From: Escherichia phage vB_EcoM_G2540-3
Sequence record: MK327944.1
Length of the DNA: 64,000 nucleotides
Direction: 5' to 3' (one strand)
Shown: piece by piece, positions 2,014 through 47,918 of the stretch
Position numbering within the stretch: position 1 is the stretch's first letter
How the letters are laid out: every line of letters begins with the position of its first letter
Notes under the pieces: model-generated
The model's database searches: none
What the model saw: only the letters and a program-made list of their open reading frames with translations
What the model was told of the DNA's origin: nothing
Program-made: the position numbers and the translations under genes

Positions 2014-2607
2014 TTATTTCAGAGAATTAATGTATTCCTGAACATCGGCAGAGGTAGTTTCAACCCCAGAAATATTACCGTTAAAGGTTTCAACTCGAGC
2101 AAGGGTATCTTCAATATCAACCTTAGTCAGTGCTGCAATTTCAACTACATCATCAGCAGTACTAATTCCAAGGGCATTTGCTGCACGAGTTTCACGGATA
2201 TATTCCAATTTAACCGCAAGTTCTTGACGAGCATCATCTAACTCAACTACTTTCTTGGCGATTTCAATTCGCATTTCAGCATAACCGTCAGCCTTAGTAG
2301 TCAACTGCTCAGCTGTTCGACGATATAGTAAACCGAGTTTAGCATGCATTGTTACATCTTGGCCTTCGGAAAGAAGTTTACGAATTTCACGCTCTTTTGA
2401 TTCGGCCTGTCGATTCTTTTCGATAACAAGTTCACGAATACGTTTTTCTTCGTTAATAGATTTAACAGAAGCAGTTTTTAGATCTTTAATTTTATCAAGT
2501 AGTTTTGCTGCTGCAGCAGTATACTGTTCTTCGACAGATAGATTTTTAGCCATAGCAGAACCAAGTTTAGTGCGAATAAACTCAACAATTTTCTTCAGTG
2601 TGTTCAT
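2014..2607 (-). CDS. coiled-coil protein, possibly PspA/IM30-like
   Basis: 197-aa ORF, highly charged with heptad periodicity; family assignment is pattern impression only. Confidence 0.5.
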
Positions 2608-2708
2608 AGTATTTCCTTAGGTTAATTGAGATTTAAAATCCGTAGGAGTATAATACTCTATCGTCAAATTATAGGCTCATAATATCTCAATCATGAGCCT
2701 ATGTAAAC

Positions 2709-2984
2709 TTATTTCATATTATTGAAATATTCTTCTGCGATTTCGTCGTTATCATGGTAAACTTTAGAAGACAGTTTAACATAACTTTCAGCAGTGAACA
2801 TGTTAATCACAACCTTTACAGTATACCACTGACCGTCTTCATTGCCCATTACCGCATAAGTTTCAAACATCGGATGATCAGGACCGATAACTTTAATATC
2901 ATTCACTGTACGACCGAAATCTTCTGAAACACATTTCATAAAGAAGTTGAACAGTTCGCCGTAATTATCCATTTCATTCTCCAA
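2709..2984 (-). CDS. hypothetical protein
   Basis: 91-aa ORF downstream of an early-promoter-like element. Confidence 0.55.
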   Translation of the reverse strand: MENEMDNYGELFNFFMKCVSEDFGRTVNDIKVIGPDHPMFETYAVMGNEDGQWYTVKVVINMFTAESYVKLSSKVYHDNDEIAEEYFNNMK

Positions 2985-3009
2985 GTTGTTTTCTGTATCA
3001 GTAGTTGAT

Positions 3010-3050
3010 AGTTGTATAGTACCATGGAAGAACGGGGATGTAAACCGTTT
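3010..3050 (-). promoter_or_regulatory. candidate sigma70-type early promoter (GTTTAC -35, A/T-rich UP element, TACTAT -10)
   Basis: Minus-strand GTTTAC at 3040-3045 with AAAAAATTTTTTCACAAAAC upstream; same family as IP-locus promoters. Confidence 0.4.
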
Positions 3051-3179
3051 TGTGAAAAAATTTTTTAAAAAGTTTTAGGGAATTCTAGGGCAGGGAGGGG
3101 CAATTAAAAGATAGGATAATATATTATAAAGGGTATAAACTAAATGATGTCTAGAGAGGCCCGGAAAGGCCTAGATACC

Positions 3180-3206
3180 AAAAAGCCCCAACCTTTCGGT
3201 CGGGGC
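3180..3206 (-). terminator. rho-independent terminator ending the tRNA/stable-RNA transcription unit
   Basis: Minus-strand hairpin GCCCCGACCGAAAGGTTGGGGC followed by UUUUU. Confidence 0.55.
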
Positions 3207-3522
3207 TAAGCCTTGCGGCAACCTTGTCGGGGTTCCACCTGCTAAGGCAAGTGTTTGTACGAAACGCCGGGATCGAACCCGGTTATTAAGTAGTTGACGC
3301 TACTCAATATTTTTAAAAGGCCATATCTCGACCATATCCGAACGTTCCGTCAAAAACGCTACTCGGCTTACGGCAAAGATATTTCCTCGAATCGATAATT
3401 CGGTGCGCCGTTTCTGCTGTGATATAAGGGGACATTAACAAAACATAAAGATTTATTAATGCCAGTCCTTAAACAGGGAACATCAGTCCGACGACTTACC
3501 GGTAGCGACCCGGTTTCTTGTC
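3207..3522 (-). ncRNA. candidate small stable RNAs (T4 species 1/2, rnaC/rnaD-like), including a tRNA-like element around 3259-3349
   Basis: No ORF; lies between tRNA-Arg and terminator as in T4; T-arm-like ACCGGGTTCGATCCCGG with acceptor-like pairing CGGAACG/CGTTTCG. Confidence 0.35.
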
Positions 3523-3598
3523 TGGTCGAGGCAGTAGGGATCGAACCTACGACCCAGGACTTAGAAGGTCCTTGCTCTTCCTTCTGAGCTATGCCCCG
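3523..3598 (-). tRNA. tRNA-Arg (anticodon UCU), CCA encoded
   Basis: Reverse complement folds as cloverleaf: acceptor CGGGGCA/TGCCTCG, anticodon loop CTTCTAA, T-arm GTAGGTTCGATCCCTAC. Confidence 0.8.
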
Positions 3599-3601
3599 TA
3601 A

Positions 3602-4267
3602 TTAAAATTTCATTTTTCGACCTTTAAACCATCCTTCTGGAATTGGGTCAGTTTTCTTAATACGTTTAGAAACTTTTTCATCTAATGAATGAATCCACAT
3701 CATACCAAATTGGGAATTCTTTTCGCCCTGTTGGTGTTTATTTCTGGCGTGAGATTCTTTCATTTTATTAATAGTTTCATCTGAATGGGACTTACCCAAG
3801 AAAGATTTAGTATTTGAAAATTTCTCTCTATACTTAGGATTATCCCAAAGCTGTTTAAACCTTTCTGAACCCATTTTACGATATTTTTCTTTAAGGTCTG
3901 GGTCGTTCTCAAATCTGGTTTTAAAAGCGGCAACTCCTTTTAAGGAAGCTTCTTTCTTTTTATCCAAATATTCTTTAGTGTTTAAATGGTCCCAACCACC
4001 TTCACCACCTAATTTCAAATTATAAACGTCAGGGCGCTTTAAAAACTCTTCAGTCACAATATTCTTTTCTGACTCAAACATAGAGGTTTTATCGTCAAAG
4101 AACTCTAATATTTCTTTAGAGAAATTTTCTATACCATACTTGTCTTGGGCTCTTTTTAATAATTTACCAGAACCCATATATCCATCATCTAAATTTTCGG
4201 TAGAATGAGCGCCTATATAGATTTTATTATTAATTTTATTTGTTATTTTATAAGTGTAATGGAACAT
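3602..4267 (-). CDS. segB: GIY-YIG homing endonuclease
   Basis: N-terminus YTYKITNKINNKIYIGAHS...GYMGSGK is a GIY-YIG motif; sits inside the tRNA cluster as T4 segB does. Confidence 0.8.
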   Translation of the reverse strand: MFHYTYKITNKINNKIYIGAHSTENLDDGYMGSGKLLKRAQDKYGIENFSKEILEFFDDKTSMFESEKNIVTEEFLKRPDVYNLKLGGEGGWDHLNTKEYLDKKKEASLKGVAAFKTRFENDPDLKEKYRKMGSERFKQLWDNPKYREKFSNTKSFLGKSHSDETINKMKESHARNKHQQGEKNSQFGMMWIHSLDEKVSKRIKKTDPIPEGWFKGRKMKF

Positions 4268-4308
4268 AAATATCTCCTATTTCTAAGAGTATTTATGTTC
4301 CCAAAATA

Positions 4309-4380
4309 TGGCCCTGGGTGGAATTGAACCACCATCTGGCGATTATGAGTCGCTTGCTTGAACCTTCCAGCTACAGGGCC
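4309..4380 (-). tRNA. tRNA-Ile (gene anticodon CAT, lysidine-type as in T4)
   Basis: Acceptor GGCCCTG/CAGGGCC, anticodon loop CTCATAA, T-arm GGTGGTTCAATTCCACC. Confidence 0.7.
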
Positions 4381-28171: not shown

Positions 28172-31312
<3,141 letters not shown>

Positions 31313-31340: not shown

Positions 31341-33320
31341 ATGACTTTATTATCTCCGGGCATTGAGCTCAAAGAAACTACGGTTCAAAGCACCGTGGTT
31401 AATAACTCTACTGGTACAGCAGCTTTGGCCGGTAAATTCCAGTGGGGTCCTGCTTTTCAGATCAAACAGGTTACAAATGAAGTAGATTTAGTTAATACTT
31501 TTGGTCAACCTACAGCTGAAACTGCTGACTATTTTATGTCTGCAATGAATTTCTTACAATATGGAAATGATTTGCGAGTTGTGCGTGCTGTCGATAGAGA
31601 TACCGCTAAAAACTCATCTCCGATTGCTGGTAATATTGAATACACTATTTCTACCCCAGGTAGTAACTACGCGGTTGGAGATAAAATCACAGTTAAGTAT
31701 GTTTCAGAAGACATTGAAACGGAAGGTAAAATTACCGAAGTAGATGCTGATGGAAAAATTAAGAAAATTAATATTCCTACCGCAAAAATTATCGCTAAAG
31801 CGAAAGAAGTCGGTGAATATCCAGCATTAGGTTCTAACTGGACCGCGGAAATTTCTTCGTCTTCCTCTGGTTTAGCTGCAGTAATAACTCTTGGAAAAAT
31901 TATTACTGATTCTGGTATTTTATTAGCTGAAATTGAAAATGCCGAAGCTGCTATGACAGCGGTTGAATTTCAAACAAATCTCGAAAAATATGGAATTCCA
32001 GGAGTAGTAGCTCTTTATCCAGGCGAGTTGGGCGATAAAATCGAAATCGAAATCGTATCTAAAGCTGACTACGCAAAAGGAGCTTCTGCATTACTCCCAA
32101 TTTATCCAGGTGGCGGAACACGCGCATCTACTGCCAAAGCAGTGTTTGGATATGGACCACAAACTGATTCGCAATACGCTATTATAGTTCGTCGTAATGA
32201 TGCTATTGTTCAAAGCGTTGTTCTTTCAACAAAGCGTGGTGAAAAAGATATTTACGATAGTAACATCTACATTGATGACTTTTTCGCAAAAGGCGGTTCA
32301 GAATATATTTTCGCAACTGCACAAAACTGGCCAGAAGGATTCTCTGGAATTTTAACTCTGTCTGGTGGATTATCATCAAATGCTGAAGTAACAGCAGGAG
32401 ATTTGATGGAAGCTTGGGACTTCTTTGCTGACCGTGAATCTGTTGACGTTCAGTTGTTTATTGCGGGTTCTTGTGCCGGTGAATCTTTAGAAACAGCATC
32501 TACTGTCCAAAAACACGTCGTTTCAATTGGGGATGCTCGCCAGGATTGCTTAGTATTGTGCTCACCACCGCGCGAAACTATAGTTGGAATTCCTGTAACT
32601 CGCGCTGTTGATAACTTAGTCAATTGGAGAACCGCAACAGGTTCATACACTGATAATAACTTTAATATCAGTTCAACCTACGCAGCAATTGATGGTAACT
32701 ACAAATATCAGTATGACAAATATAATGATGTCAATCGCTGGGTTCCATTAGCAGCTGATATTGCCGGTTTATGTGCAAGAACCGATAACGTTTCTCAGAC
32801 TTGGATGTCTCCAGCTGGTTATAATCGCGGCCAGATTCTTAACGTTATTAAACTTGCTATTGAAACTCGCCAAGCTCAGCGCGACCGTTTATATCAAGAA
32901 GCTATCAACCCAGTAACTGGTACAGGTGGTGATGGTTACGTATTATATGGTGATAAAACAGCTACTTCTGTTCCTTCTCCATTTGATCGTATTAACGTTC
33001 GTCGTCTGTTTAATATGTTGAAAACGAATATCGGACGTAGTTCAAAATATCGTTTGTTCGAATTAAACAACGCGTTTACTCGTTCATCATTCCGCACAGA
33101 AACTGCCCAATACTTACAGGGAATTAAAGCTCTCGGTGGAATTTATGAATATCGTGTAGTTTGCGATACAACAAATAACACTCCGTCAGTAATTGATAGA
33201 AATGAGTTTGTTGCAACATTCTACATCCAACCGGCGCGCAGTATAAATTATATTACTTTGAATTTCGTCGCAACTGCTACTGGTGCAGACTTCGATGAGT
33301 TAACTGGTCTTGCAGGTTAA
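31341..33320 (+). CDS. 18: tail sheath protein gp18
   Basis: 659 aa, T4 gp18 size. Confidence 0.9.
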   Translation: MTLLSPGIELKETTVQSTVVNNSTGTAALAGKFQWGPAFQIKQVTNEVDLVNTFGQPTAETADYFMSAMNFLQYGNDLRVVRAVDRDTAKNSSPIAGNIEYTISTPGSNYAVGDKITVKYVSEDIETEGKITEVDADGKIKKINIPTAKIIAKAKEVGEYPALGSNWTAEISSSSSGLAAVITLGKIITDSGILLAEIENAEAAMTAVEFQTNLEKYGIPGVVALYPGELGDKIEIEIVSKADYAKGASALLPIYPGGGTRASTAKAVFGYGPQTDSQYAIIVRRNDAIVQSVVLSTKRGEKDIYDSNIYIDDFFAKGGSEYIFATAQNWPEGFSGILTLSGGLSSNAEVTAGDLMEAWDFFADRESVDVQLFIAGSCAGESLETASTVQKHVVSIGDARQDCLVLCSPPRETIVGIPVTRAVDNLVNWRTATGSYTDNNFNISSTYAAIDGNYKYQYDKYNDVNRWVPLAADIAGLCARTDNVSQTWMSPAGYNRGQILNVIKLAIETRQAQRDRLYQEAINPVTGTGGDGYVLYGDKTATSVPSPFDRINVRRLFNMLKTNIGRSSKYRLFELNNAFTRSSFRTETAQYLQGIKALGGIYEYRVVCDTTNNTPSVIDRNEFVATFYIQPARSINYITLNFVATATGADFDELTGLAG

Positions 33321-33328
33321 TTGATTAT

Positions 33329-33342
33329 GGGGCTTCGGCCCC
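33329..33342 (+). other. RNA hairpin with UUCG tetraloop after gene 18
   Basis: GGGGCTTCGGCCCC immediately after gene 18 stop. Confidence 0.5.
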
Positions 33343-33359
33343 TATTCTCGAGGAAACAA

Positions 33360-33977
33360 GTGATTATTTCTAAGTTTGTTAAAGTGAAAATTGTACCATC
33401 AAATTTTAAACATTATCAATCAAAGGGTTATAAATTAACACCTCTTGGAGCGGTTAAACATGGATTTAGGTATTATGAAATTGATGTTAAAGTTGAAGAC
33501 ATTAAAGGTAGTACCGCGTATGTAAAATGTCGTTGCGATAAATGTGGAATTGAATATAACCAACGCATTGGAAGAAACACTGATATTTGTCGTGATTGCT
33601 GTCATAAAGATAAAATGCGCAATAATTCATATGGTTCCGCGAATAAAGGAAAAACAGTAGAATGTATGCATGGCGTAAATCATCCAAGATGGAACCCAAA
33701 TAAATCTGAAATGCGTGAATATATTTCATTGGTATATAAAGAAACTCGTAAGCATAAGAAAATTTGGTCAAAATGGCCAAATGCTGATAAAATAGGAGTG
33801 TGTGGTACAAAAGGTGCTTACCAACTTGATCATAAGGTATCTATCAAATACGGTTTTGATAATTTAATTCCTGCTAAAATAATTGGCGGTATTAATAATT
33901 TAGAAATAATCACTTGGGAATCTAACCGAGAAAAATCAAAAAGAAATAGTGTAGATCTTTGGGATTTACTAGAATGA
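33360..33977 (+). CDS. HNH-family endonuclease-like protein inserted between genes 18 and 19
   Basis: Cys-rich region CRCDKCG...CRDCCH; HNH-like QLDHKVSIKYGF...NLEIITWESNREK; likely GTG start at 33360 with GAGGAAA RBS (track ORF starts 33321). Confidence 0.6.
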   Translation: MIISKFVKVKIVPSNFKHYQSKGYKLTPLGAVKHGFRYYEIDVKVEDIKGSTAYVKCRCDKCGIEYNQRIGRNTDICRDCCHKDKMRNNSYGSANKGKTVECMHGVNHPRWNPNKSEMREYISLVYKETRKHKKIWSKWPNADKIGVCGTKGAYQLDHKVSIKYGFDNLIPAKIIGGINNLEIITWESNREKSKRNSVDLWDLLE

Positions 33978-33984
33978 TTCTAAA

Positions 33985-34002
33985 GGCCTGTTTCGGCAGG
34001 CC
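33985..34002 (+). other. hairpin after the 18/19 endonuclease gene
   Basis: GGCCTG-tttcgg-CAGGCC. Confidence 0.35.
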
Positions 34003-34003
34003 A

Positions 34004-34011
34004 TATAAATA
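34004..34011 (+). promoter_or_regulatory. late promoter TATAAATA (distal) for gene 19
   Basis: Exact motif. Confidence 0.5.
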
Positions 34012-34062: not shown

Positions 34063-34070
34063 TATAAATA
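34063..34070 (+). promoter_or_regulatory. late promoter TATAAATA (proximal) for gene 19
   Basis: Exact motif 15 bp upstream of gene 19 ATG. Confidence 0.6.
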
Positions 34071-34084
34071 CTACAGAGGCTAAT

Positions 34085-34576
34085 ATGTTTGTAGATGATG
34101 TAACACGAGCGTTTGAATCTGGTGATTTTGCTCGACCTAACTTATTCCAAGTAGAAATTTCTTATCTTGGACAAAATTTTACGTTTCAATGTAAAGCCAC
34201 TGCTTTACCAGCTGGTATTGTAGAAAAAATTCCAGTCGGATTTATGAACCGTAAAATTAACGTAGCAGGCGATCGTACATTCGATGACTGGACTATTACA
34301 GTAATGAATGATGAGGCGCATGATGCACGCCAGAAGTTTGTTGACTGGCAAAGCATTGCTGCTGGGCAAGGAAACGAAATTACTGGTGGAAAACCAGCAG
34401 AGTATAAAAAGAGTGCTATTGTACGCCAATATGCTCGTGACGCTAAAACTGTAACAAAAGAAGTCGAAATTAAAGGCCTGTGGCCTACTAACGTGGGTGA
34501 ACTTCAGTTAGATTGGGATTCAAACAATGAAATCCAAACCTTTGAAGTAACTCTCGCTCTCGATTATTGGGAATAA
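34085..34576 (+). CDS. 19: tail tube protein gp19
   Basis: 163 aa, T4 gp19 size. Confidence 0.9.
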   Translation: MFVDDVTRAFESGDFARPNLFQVEISYLGQNFTFQCKATALPAGIVEKIPVGFMNRKINVAGDRTFDDWTITVMNDEAHDARQKFVDWQSIAAGQGNEITGGKPAEYKKSAIVRQYARDAKTVTKEVEIKGLWPTNVGELQLDWDSNNEIQTFEVTLALDYWE

Positions 34577-45100: not shown

Positions 45101-45718
45101 ATGTACCACTTTGTATATGAAACAACAAATCTAATAAATGGTAAAAAGTATATAGGAAAACACTCTACTGATGACTTGAATGATGGTTACCTTGGTTCCG
45201 GTAAGGCAATTCAGCAGGCTATAAAGAAATATGGTGAAAACAATTTCTCTAGAACAATACTAAAAGAGTTTAAAACTTCCGAAGAAGCGTACATGTATGA
45301 AGAAGAAATTATAACTCCTGAAATAATAAAAAGCAAAAATTATTATAATATGAAACCTGGCGGAATTGGTGGAATTGTTATGACTACAGAGGTTATAGCA
45401 AAGATGAAAGAATCTTCCGCTAAGAGATTTGAAAACTCACCGGGCACGGTATTAGGTACAACTTGTTACACTAATGGAACTAAAAATATTTTTATTAAGC
45501 CTGGAGAACTTGTTCCAGAAGGATTTGTAAAAGGGATGGTTCATCCTAATAGAAAGTCCAGAAAAGGATGTAAAGTCAAACCGACTACCACAGGAACTTT
45601 TTGGGTCAATAATGGTGCAATAAATAAATTAATACAACCAGACGGTATTATTCCCGACGGATTTATTAAAGGTCGTCTCATGAAAAGAGATTCTAAAGGC
45701 AAATTTAGTAAGGCATAA
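45101..45718 (+). CDS. segE: GIY-YIG homing endonuclease
   Basis: MYHFVYETTNLINGKKYIGKHS...GYLGSGK is a GIY-YIG motif; 205 aa, upstream of uvsW as T4 segE. Confidence 0.8.
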   Translation: MYHFVYETTNLINGKKYIGKHSTDDLNDGYLGSGKAIQQAIKKYGENNFSRTILKEFKTSEEAYMYEEEIITPEIIKSKNYYNMKPGGIGGIVMTTEVIAKMKESSAKRFENSPGTVLGTTCYTNGTKNIFIKPGELVPEGFVKGMVHPNRKSRKGCKVKPTTTGTFWVNNGAINKLIQPDGIIPDGFIKGRLMKRDSKGKFSKA

Positions 45719-45720
45719 TT

Positions 45721-47229
45721 ATGGATATTAAAGTACATTTTCACGACTTCAGTCATGTACGCATCGATTGTGAAGAGAGCACGTTCCACGAATTAAGAGA
45801 TTTCTTTTCGTTTGAGGCCGATGGATATAGATTTAACCCTCGCTTCAGATATGGCAACTGGGATGGACGAATCCGTCTTTTAGATTATAATCGTCTTCTT
45901 CCGTTTGGCTTAGTCGGGCAAATTAAAAAGTTCTGTGATAACTTTGGCTATAAAGCCTGGATTGACCCGCAAATTAACGAAAAAGAAGAATTATCAAGAA
46001 AAGATTTTGATGAATGGCTTTCTAAATTAGAAATCTATTCAGGAAATAAAAGAATTGAACCGCACTGGTATCAAAAAGATGCAGTGTTCGAAGGATTAGT
46101 TAATCGTCGTAGAATTCTTAATCTTCCAACATCCGCAGGTAAATCTTTAATTCAAGCTTTGCTTGCACGTTATTATTTGGAAAATTATGAAGGTAAAATT
46201 CTTATCATTGTTCCAACAACTGCTCTGACAACTCAGATGGCTGATGACTTCGTCGACTATCGTTTATTCAGTCATGCAATGATAAAGAAAATTGGTGGCG
46301 GAGCATCAAAAGATGATAAATATAAAAATGATGCACCAGTCGTTGTTGGTACATGGCAAACTGTAGTTAAACAACCGAAAGAATGGTTCTCACAGTTTGG
46401 AATGATGATGAATGATGAATGTCATCTTGCTACAGGAAAAAGTATTTCATCTATCATATCAGGTTTAAATAACTGCATGTTCAAATTCGGTTTGTCTGGT
46501 TCATTACGTGATGGCAAAGCCAATATCATGCAGTATGTTGGAATGTTTGGTGAAATATTTAAGCCAGTAACGACTTCTAAATTAATGGAAGATGGACAAG
46601 TAACTGAGCTAAAAATTAATAGTATTTTTCTTCGCTATCCAGATGAGTTCACTACTAAATTAAAGGGAAAAACTTATCAAGAAGAAATAAAAATTATTAC
46701 TGGGCTCAGTAAAAGAAATAAATGGATCGCTAAATTAGCTATTAAGCTTGCGCAAAAAGATGAAAACGCTTTTGTCATGTTTAAACATGTATCACATGGT
46801 AAAGCTATTTTCGATTTAATTAAAAACGAATACGATAAAGTTTATTACGTATCAGGGGAAGTTGATACAGAAACCCGCAATATAATGAAAACCTTAGCTG
46901 AAAACGGTAAAGGAATAATTATAGTAGCTAGTTATGGTGTATTTTCTACTGGTATTTCAGTTAAAAATCTGCATCACGTTGTTTTAGCACACGGTGTTAA
47001 ATCAAAAATCATTGTATTACAAACAATCGGTCGTGTATTACGTAAGCATGGTTCTAAAACAATCGCAACAGTCTGGGACCTCATAGATGACGCGGGTGTA
47101 GTTTCTAAATCAAAAACATCTTCTAAAAAATACTCGCATTTAAACTATCTTTTAAAACATGGACTTGATCGTATTCAGCGTTATGCTGATGAAAAGTTTA
47201 ATTATGTGATGAAAGAGGTTAAACTTTGA
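45721..47229 (+). CDS. uvsW: DNA/RNA helicase UvsW
   Basis: 502 aa; Walker A-like PTSAGKSL and DExH-like MMNDECH. Confidence 0.85.
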   Translation: MDIKVHFHDFSHVRIDCEESTFHELRDFFSFEADGYRFNPRFRYGNWDGRIRLLDYNRLLPFGLVGQIKKFCDNFGYKAWIDPQINEKEELSRKDFDEWLSKLEIYSGNKRIEPHWYQKDAVFEGLVNRRRILNLPTSAGKSLIQALLARYYLENYEGKILIIVPTTALTTQMADDFVDYRLFSHAMIKKIGGGASKDDKYKNDAPVVVGTWQTVVKQPKEWFSQFGMMMNDECHLATGKSISSIISGLNNCMFKFGLSGSLRDGKANIMQYVGMFGEIFKPVTTSKLMEDGQVTELKINSIFLRYPDEFTTKLKGKTYQEEIKIITGLSKRNKWIAKLAIKLAQKDENAFVMFKHVSHGKAIFDLIKNEYDKVYYVSGEVDTETRNIMKTLAENGKGIIIVASYGVFSTGISVKNLHHVVLAHGVKSKIIVLQTIGRVLRKHGSKTIATVWDLIDDAGVVSKSKTSSKKYSHLNYLLKHGLDRIQRYADEKFNYVMKEVKL

Positions 47230-47918
47230 ATTATAAATTAATATATGATAATTTAATTAATAGAGCCCAAAATCGGGCTCGCCTTAATGGATACACTGAA
47301 ACACATCATATAATTCCTAGATGTATGGGTGGTACAAATGATAAGTGTAATTTAGTAGAACTAACGGCTGAAGAACATTTTATAGCCCATAAACTTTTAG
47401 CTAAAATTCATCCAAACCATTACGGTATAATTAAAGCTGTTATATGTATGGGGATGAATTCAAATACTCATGAAAGACACGTTAATAAATCTTACGCATG
47501 GGAACGTCGTAAAATGGCAGAACTTCAATCCGGCGAAGGTAATCCATTTTACGGAAAACACCATACGGAAGAACATAAACAATATATGTCAAAACTCATG
47601 AAAAGTCGTCCAATTACATGGGGAAATAAAATTAGTAAAACTAAAAGAATGAACCCAACGAAATGGACTGAAGAAGCTAAAAGATTACATTCAATCAATC
47701 AATCGGGTAAAAATAACGGCATGTATGGAAGGAAACATTCCGCTAAATCTATTCAGAAAATTAAAGATAACATGCCAGATAATTCAGGAGCTAATAACCC
47801 AGCTGCTAAACCTATAGAAGTAAATGGTGTTAAGTATAAATGTATGAAAGATGCTTCTAAAGCTACTGGATTATCAATGTACAAACTAAGAATACTTAGA
47901 AAAACAGTTAATTTATAA
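47226..47918 (+). CDS. free-standing HNH homing endonuclease (paralog of the gene 13/14 insert)
   Basis: HHIIPRCMGG...NLVELTAEEHFIAH; N-terminus MNYKLIY parallels MNYTKIY of 26546..27358; TTG start overlaps uvsW stop. Confidence 0.7.
   Translation: MNYKLIYDNLINRAQNRARLNGYTETHHIIPRCMGGTNDKCNLVELTAEEHFIAHKLLAKIHPNHYGIIKAVICMGMNSNTHERHVNKSYAWERRKMAELQSGEGNPFYGKHHTEEHKQYMSKLMKSRPITWGNKISKTKRMNPTKWTEEAKRLHSINQSGKNNGMYGRKHSAKSIQKIKDNMPDNSGANNPAAKPIEVNGVKYKCMKDASKATGLSMYKLRILRKTVNL

Follow-up and report, generated by a model that had tools for sequence, protein, structure and literature searches.

A probable free-standing homing endonuclease gene of HNH type between the tail sheath and tail tube genes of T4-like phages

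Our analysis of a 64,000-nucleotide stretch of Escherichia phage vB_EcoM_G2540-3 (MK327944.1; hereafter the window) indicates that the open-reading frame at positions 33321-33977 (+ strand) is probably a free-standing homing endonuclease gene, and that it belongs to a family which has so far gone unannotated. The gene is real, its product very probably belongs to the HNH nucleases and probably acts as a homing endonuclease, and the homing gene is probably active; the nuclease activity, target position, homing and mode of expression are all predictions. The frame was confirmed in the ORF list, flanked by gene 18 (31341-33320, + strand) and gene 19 (34085-34576), the order being gene 17 (29477-31309), gene 18, the ORF, gene 19 and then gene 20. 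Gene 18, identified as the tail sheath gene from the ORF list and from how the identical regions of RB3, ADUt and T4 are annotated, is presumed to carry the target region of the endonuclease. The window is a Tequatrovirus (T4-like) segment, which in the 1.8-kb region tested shared 99.3% identity with Escherichia phage 132 and ~98% with RB3.

A three-way alignment of the window, T4 and Ptacy1496 delimited the inserted segment relative to T4 (~655 bp, 33322..33976, + strand). At the junction T4 reads …GGTTAA-TACGGTGCA-TTCTAAAGGCCTGTTTCGGCAGGCC-ATATAAATA…, the window reads …GGTTAA followed by about 655 bp and then TTCTAAAGGCC…, and from there it is identical to T4 through gene 19. The insert replaces 7–9 nt (TACGGTGCA) of the T4 18/19 spacer and leaves the remainder intact, so that the gene is a presence/absence polymorphism at one locus with exact boundaries. 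The spacer measures 764 nt in the window vs. 116 nt in T4, and 116–117 nt in the empty phages T4, T2 and RB14, in agreement with the original prediction that the ORF sits in an otherwise short spacer; the empty sites do not differ from one another, look pristine and carry no scars. That prediction also gave the ORF a downstream hairpin of its own and two TATAAATA motifs feeding gene 19. All of these exist, the hairpin at 33985..34002 (+ strand; −15.9 kcal/mol for the fragment) and the boxes, two native T4-type late promoters for gene 19, at 34004-34011 and 34063-34070 (+ strand), but the hairpin lies outside the insert and cannot be called the ORF's own, since it is the native post-gene-18 hairpin of the T4-type spacer. 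As the hairpin and both boxes are identical in T4, they belong to the ancestral 18/19 spacer and not to the element, whose own contribution is limited to the ORF, its Shine-Dalgarno sequence and a UUCG hairpin on the 5′ side.

The longest frame runs through this UUCG hairpin, and a GTG start at 33360 with a GAGGAAA ribosome-binding site had been judged more plausible. The GTG start was borne out: the RB3 annotators use the same start, all 30 aligned homologues start MII(S/T)K or MIT…, and no conservation extends further upstream. The stretch that leads from the gene 18 stop to the GTG (33321-33359, 39 nt) is 1 nt shorter in RB3 and 4 nt longer in Ptacy1496, length differences which show that the upstream frame is not conserved; on account of these indels in close relatives, we rejected a longer frame beginning at TTG 33321 or ATG 33327. 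The coding sequence is placed at 33360..33977 (+ strand; 205 aa, GTG start, TGA stop) from the RB3 annotation and the homologue alignments, with the Shine-Dalgarno GAGG at 33350..33353 (+ strand), 6 nt 5′ of the start codon. Across 12 loci of different genera the start is GTG or ATG, with a purine-rich, Shine-Dalgarno-like stretch before most of them. The UUCG hairpin itself is present where it had been described, inside the longest frame and right behind the gene 18 stop: RNA folding gives an element-borne GC stem with a UUCG tetraloop at 33329..33342 (+ strand; stem 33329-33333/33338-33342, −10.8 kcal/mol, z = −2.3). Of 11 homologous loci examined, 8 have a stem-loop 5′ of the start, with a GC stem in the three Tequatrovirus loci, Thanatos-2 (GGGGCUUCGGCCCC), S16 (GGGCCUUCGGGCCC), VR7 and Bp7 and one rich in AT in Roth21. 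Folding did not convincingly sequester the Shine-Dalgarno sequence or the GTG, the terminator/promoter scan returned no intrinsic terminator, and in the promoter scan sigma-70-like sites were no more frequent than in shuffled sequences. As the gene has no exact TATAAATA box of its own and the UUCG hairpin has no U-tract, read-through from gene 18, whose promoter is at 31305, is likely. In VR7 (L008, ~2465-2500) the hairpin in front of the endonuclease gene has a TATAAATA box in its loop, and CHI14 (L009) and Bp7 (L010) each have their own TATAAATA directly 5′ of the ATG, just upstream of position 2501, which indicates that some family members, unlike the window copy, have their own late promoter.

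A profile search of 1.84 billion representatives recovered 6,383 family proteins at E ≤ 1e-3 and 1,528 at E ≤ 1e-10, and tblastn located the family in 236 phage records, almost all as one full-length alignment, which indicates intact genes and not relics. Conservation in all relatives as part of the core genome, which had been named as the finding that would speak against an inserted endonuclease, was not what we observed: the ORF is optional, being present in ~111 of roughly 493 Tequatrovirus records (~22%) and missing from ~382. Here a phage record was counted as empty if it covered at least 80% of a 150-nt query made up of the T4 gene 18 end and the empty spacer, and as occupied if it covered at least 80% of the matching query with the insert start. 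T4, T2 and RB14 are empty and RB3 and T6 occupied, both states are present in the VR7 group (Gaprivervirus), and empty sites are found in close relatives of S16. Every full-length homologue examined lies directly behind the sheath gene and, where this is visible, before the tube gene. Such sheath-adjacent copies are found in the isolates Ptacy1496, T6, RB3, Klebsiella Roth21 and RCIP0032, Salmonella S16, Shewanella Thanatos-2, VR7 (where the gene is annotated ‘gp19.1, similar to T6 gp19.1’), VR26-like, CHI14, Bp7 and Sinorhizobium phiM7, and the distribution spans at least eight genera as well as several metagenomic phages. The most distant members that were looked up (P0036, P0034, P0028, P0065 and P0094) are likewise behind a sheath gene. 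In metagenomes and IMG/VR, 4 of 160 sheath-gene loci, mostly from aquatic T4-like phages, carry the gene. One protein with a DUF7487 N-terminus (P0184) is encoded in an unrelated context, away from recognisable sheath genes.

Divergence of the endonuclease does not follow that of its neighbours. For example, VR7 and the VR26-like phage share 99% identity in gp19 and 99% in the last 200 aa of gp18, with 34% in the endonuclease; the window and Ptacy1496 share 99%, 100% and 55% in the same three comparisons, whilst the window and S16/Roth21/Thanatos-2 share 67–76% in gp19, 73–88% in gp18 (last 200 aa) and 62–64% in the endonuclease. Over 45 pairs, endonuclease identity and gp18/gp19 identity gave a Spearman rho of −0.15, which is not significant, and the history of the endonuclease thus appears uncoupled from that of the flanking genes, as horizontal spread would predict. 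At least three divergent classes are distributed across T4-like genera (window/S16/Roth21, T6/VR7 and CHI14/Bp7/VR26), two of which are found within Tequatrovirus: class A (window and RB3; 47 records at ≥95% amino-acid identity) and class B (T6, PST and ECML-134). These two are mosaics of one another, in which the first ~7 and last ~75 residues are near-identical, at the nucleotide level too and with the whole HNH core included, and residues ~10-125, the zinc-finger module, share only ~30% identity. The same swap of the zinc-finger module was found in another lineage, in the pair P0012/P0024.

It is possible, though we consider it unlikely, that the ORF is an old accessory gene which has stood at the sheath-tube junction since early T4-like evolution, kept for a benefit to the phage (the exclusion of competing phages, attack on host or parasite DNA and DNA processing being the candidates) and repeatedly lost, with no spread by homing. 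The position of the gene does not vary between the lineages examined, among them Sinorhizobium phiM7 and deep metagenomic T4-like phages with no more than ~54–70% identity in the sheath C-terminus, its copies are nearly always intact, and some empty sites have the flanking haplotype of occupied ones, as expected after deletion. However, the endonuclease diverges independently of its flanks, and vertical descent with loss offers no explanation for three classes which are common to several genera and also co-occur within one genus; absence from T4, T2 and ~78% of Tequatrovirus records means that the gene is dispensable, and the pristine, mutually identical and unscarred state of the empty sites likewise tells against repeated deletion.

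The sequence next to the insertion is also polymorphic between occupied and empty phages. Of the 17 differences between window and T4 in the final 300 nt of gene 18, 11 fall within 33236-33269, and all 11 are synonymous. This patch of silent differences between window and T4 (33236..33272, + strand; codons R-S-I-N-Y-I-T-L-N-F-V, 50–85 nt before the gene 18 stop) spans 34–37 nt, with mismatches packed more densely than anywhere else in the 2.9 kb upstream, and it contains TATAAATT at 33242-33249 (+ strand), which fits the late-promoter consensus at 7 of 8 positions. The occupied VR26-like phage diverges from an empty congener at the same place, the upstream part of the compared 150 nt being identical. 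Among 172 loci, the ATA-AAT codons (Ile-Asn of …PARSINYITLNF…) are present in 12 of 15 occupied vs. 5 of 157 empty loci, the three occupied loci that have other codons (L009, L010 and L112) belonging to the CHI14/Bp7 class. By sampled rankings, the T4-type patch accompanies ~63% of empty vs. 3–4 of 111 occupied Tequatrovirus sites. Occupied phages which nonetheless have the T4-type patch are sb1 (where the gene is intact), sb3 and Ec_YwIITB1, whilst ~37% of empty sites have an occupied-type patch, among them T2, EC121 and fPS-2 (patch A) and RB14 (patch B). After de-duplication the patch contrast was 12/13 vs. 9/18, in a sample deliberately enriched for exceptions. The patch is strongly, not absolutely, linked to occupancy, with exceptions in both directions. 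It is consistent with a candidate recognition or immunity site, with a co-converted flank or, in the window only, with a late-promoter-like box (TATAAATT). As an obligatory immunity site it was rejected in absolute form, because there are occupied phages with the T4-type patch and many empty ones with the occupied type. The idea that the ATAAAT patch in gene 18 serves as the late promoter of the endonuclease gene was downgraded, as S16, VR7 and RCIP0032 read GATAAATT and sb1 lacks the patch.

The two Tequatrovirus classes are tied to their own gene 18 silent-site haplotypes, patch A occurring with ITLN and patch B with IQLN. We have considered whether the sheath-tube junction might host a long-lived multi-allele gene-drive system, in which at least three classes would compete for one site, each enzyme cutting, besides the empty T4-type allele, those of the other classes, and the gene 18 patch would act as the determinant of specificity and immunity; we hold this elaborate form of the idea to be doubtful.

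The reading that we favour, a homing endonuclease, is also drawn from the protein itself, for which a Cys-rich segment and an HNH-like core (QLDH…NLEIITWESNREK) had been proposed; both are present and conserved. Of the two adjacent Cys in the proposed CRDCCH motif, the C80 column is conserved and C81 is not (it is R in RB3 and sb1). Residues 1-88 (33360..33623, + strand) form an N-terminal β-strand and treble-clef-like zinc-finger domain, presumed to be a DNA-binding module, which was delimited from its conserved CxxC…CxxC, weak DUF4379 matches, a profile match to the zinc-finger repeats of mS66 and a pLDDT of about 90; its Cys ligands, C59, C62, C77 and C80 (33534-33599, + strand), are spaced C59-x2-C62…C77-x2-C80. 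Residues 104-205 (33669..33974, + strand) form a C-terminal helical and ββα-metal nuclease domain of the HNH (H-N-N) type, with D157-H158 at 33828-33833, N180 at 33897-33899, N189 at 33924-33926 and K192 at 33933-33935 (all + strand). In an alignment of 30 homologues, D157, H158, N180, N189 and K192 are invariant and C59, C62 and C77 nearly so, and the C80 column holds Cys in every member but the P0030-32 subgroup and the truncated P0037. Across 148 relatives, D157, H158, N180, L181, N189 and K192 are at least 90% conserved, and in a 36-sequence C-terminal alignment the D-H, the N-L and the N are invariant. With roles assigned by position, the general-base His, the conserved Asn and the metal-ligand Asn/His of an HNH site all appear to be in place, and the predicted fold is the ββα-metal fold of the HNH/His-Me finger superfamily. 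The AlphaFold model of the whole protein (pLDDT 86.6) has two well-defined halves joined by a poorly defined linker (residues 85-110), and residues 104-205 modelled alone reached a pLDDT of 90.5 and a pTM of 0.77.

Profile libraries recognised little of this. Searched with the window protein, Pfam and NCBIfam returned no family even at E ≤ 10, so that no curated HNH profile threshold was reached, and PHROGs assigned the protein to phrog_5104, of ‘unknown function’, with a marginal match (0.016) of residues 1-83 to a homing endonuclease family. A Pfam scan of the 148 relatives gave sub-threshold matches to HNH_4 (9.5e-4) and HNH (2.4e-3), in two members each, and to HNH_5 in a few, together with NUMOD3 in three, DUF7487 in four, several helix-turn-helix domains and weak matches to DUF4379, a ‘treble clef zinc finger’, in 8–10 (best 7e-6); this mixture of domains looks like the modular architecture typical of homing endonucleases. 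Three longer proteins (P0184, encoded at L201 3001-4356, P0131 and P0133) have the same C-terminal nuclease domain fused to DUF7487, which may be another DNA-binding module of homing endonucleases. Against PDB sequences, the family profile matched the zinc-finger repeats of mS66 (E = 6.5e-4); the searches with family profiles returned zinc-finger matches only (mS66 and C2H2), and never the nuclease part. Foldseek against the PDB gave no meaningful match. The nearest structures to the nuclease domain are nicking enzymes, and lower-ranked structure matches included T5 SciA, Vibrio endonuclease I, several Cas9 HNH domains, Cap5, BrxU, an Rhs endonuclease toxin, DraIII and PtuB. An HNH/His-Me domain, which the original prediction had made the touchstone of its claim, was therefore detected through the invariant motif residues and the sub-threshold Pfam matches of relatives, the profile search of the protein itself being blank, and with all lines combined we regard the H-N-N-type HNH assignment as sound with a good degree of confidence.

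These residues also bear on whether the protein could be a DNA- or RNA-binding regulator with a non-catalytic HNH-like fold, which might control its own gene or modulate the late expression of genes 18 and 19. It is the zinc finger that the libraries recognise best, the linked gene 18 patch resembles a late promoter (TATAAATT), and I-TevI is known to double as a repressor. But 148 divergent relatives keep the catalytic Asp-His, the two Asn and the Lys with little or no variation and the zinc-finger region is variable, the opposite of what is expected of a protein that only binds, and we judge a regulator to be highly improbable. Most improbable of all is a packaging-associated HNH protein of the HK97 gp74 or GVE2 type, helping the terminase encoded 2 kb upstream, as T4, T2, RB14 and the majority of relatives lack the gene, the sheath gene separates it from the terminase genes to which such a protein would be expected to be adjacent and conserved, it encodes an extra, sequence-variable zinc-finger domain typical of site-specific enzymes, and packaging in T4-type phages proceeds by a headful mechanism with gp16/gp17 alone.

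For a homing endonuclease, the findings suggest the following course of events. The protein would consist of two modules, the N-terminal β/zinc-finger module presumably binding DNA and the C-terminal HNH (H-N-N, His-Me finger) module acting as the nuclease, joined by a flexible linker. Expression would be late and weak, given the GTG start, no clear promoter of its own and no exact TATAAATA box, and the TATAAATT box inside gene 18 may offer an alternative source of transcripts. The site bound by the zinc-finger module would be in the empty spacer or else within or close to the conserved 3′ end of gene 18, and in a mixed infection with an empty-spacer relative the HNH domain would nick or cut the genome of that relative in or near the site. 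T4-type recombination-dependent repair, with the occupied genome as template, would then carry the gene and a short flanking tract into the empty site.

The gene resembles the T-even MobA-E genes in being small and optional, in its place in the spacer between conserved essential genes, in its patchy occurrence among close relatives, in its predicted HNH-type chemistry, and in its weak start codon, nearby hairpin and likely late expression. The T4 mob genes stand at several different loci, the characterised MobE, for example, lying between nrdA and nrdB, whereas the 18/19 family is faithful to one locus. The window protein also has no detectable similarity to the mob-type PHROG and Pfam models, its domain order is reversed (zinc finger N-terminal and HNH C-terminal), and its nuclease domain is without a CxxC zinc site, so that neither sequence nor domain order places it in the mob family. 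A second likeness is to SegF and SegG, the T4 GIY-YIG enzymes of ‘intronless homing’: the predicted cut is within the neighbouring conserved gene of an endonuclease-free phage, off the insertion point, and flanking markers, silent polymorphisms between donor and recipient, are co-converted, the counterpart here being the gene 18 patch 50–85 nt upstream. The window protein differs in being HNH and not GIY-YIG, the association with its patch is imperfect, and cleavage and marker exclusion are here predicted only. Among small HNH nicking endonucleases of solved structure, the Geobacter Gme HNH protein (4h9d), the HNH protein of phage GVE2 (5h0o) and T5 SciA share only 3–16% sequence identity with the window protein and are without an N-terminal zinc-finger module; the GVE2 protein works with terminase and SciA makes site-specific nicks in T5 DNA, and neither is a homing enzyme. 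The weak likeness of the relatives' N-terminal CxxC…CxxC to Pfam DUF4379 and the kinetoplastid mitoribosomal mS66 covers, for DUF4379, only ~55 residues, with the window protein below threshold, and informs on zinc binding alone.

In public records the same gene is annotated in most cases as a hypothetical protein, and otherwise as a ‘homing endonuclease’ (ADUt), an ‘HNH endonuclease’ (Ptacy1496), a ‘type II restriction endonuclease’ (Klebsiella Roth phages), a ‘holin’ (ZCEC14) or a ‘putative head morphogenesis protein’ (SF2-1). No published description of an endonuclease gene at 18/19 was found in the literature, and in the tabulation of homing endonuclease genes per T4-related genome by Petrov et al. 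2010 (PMC2993671) none is placed at this junction. The family is large yet invisible to Pfam, NCBIfam and the function labels of PHROGs, and its recognition would correct these annotations. Homing endonuclease genes shape recombination and marker exclusion in T4-like phages, those in therapy cocktails included, and are a source of site-specific nucleases. The 18/19 junction of RB3 or T6 vs. that of T4 or T2 would make a simple, testable system, from which one might learn what keeps a homing gene bound to a single essential gene across deep evolutionary time.

Further endonuclease genes were recognised in the window. The ORF had been counted as its third HNH-like endonuclease, a tally which the profile libraries do not bear out, as besides the ORF they recognise two GIY-YIG/seg-like genes (3605-4267, − strand, and 45101-45715, + strand) and one NUMOD3/HNH-like gene (47226-47915, + strand; PHROG 655/12434, homing/HNH endonuclease). 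The last two flank an ORF (45721-47229) which we take to be uvsW, the 45101-45715 gene lying just before it, presumably the segD position, and the 47226-47915 gene just after it. With the 18/19 gene included, the window holds four candidate homing endonuclease genes. Elsewhere, the annotation of Bp7 places an HNH endonuclease between its genes 19 and 20 and gives the portal gene in two pieces (L010 3769-4350, 4408-5630), and the portal gene of Ptacy1496 is likewise split into two CDS (L003 3789-5353); the 19/20 junction may be another endonuclease-prone site. A metagenomic T4-like contig (L202) encodes a portal gene with an intein (2105-4324; Pfam Intein_splicing between the parts of Portal_T4), just downstream of a 385-aa member of the endonuclease family. 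Finally, a 32-kb GenBank record, MG010123.1, labelled ‘Staphylococcus phage SAJK-IND’, shares 98.2% identity with the coliphage region, the 18/19 insert included, and is probably mislabelled or contaminated.
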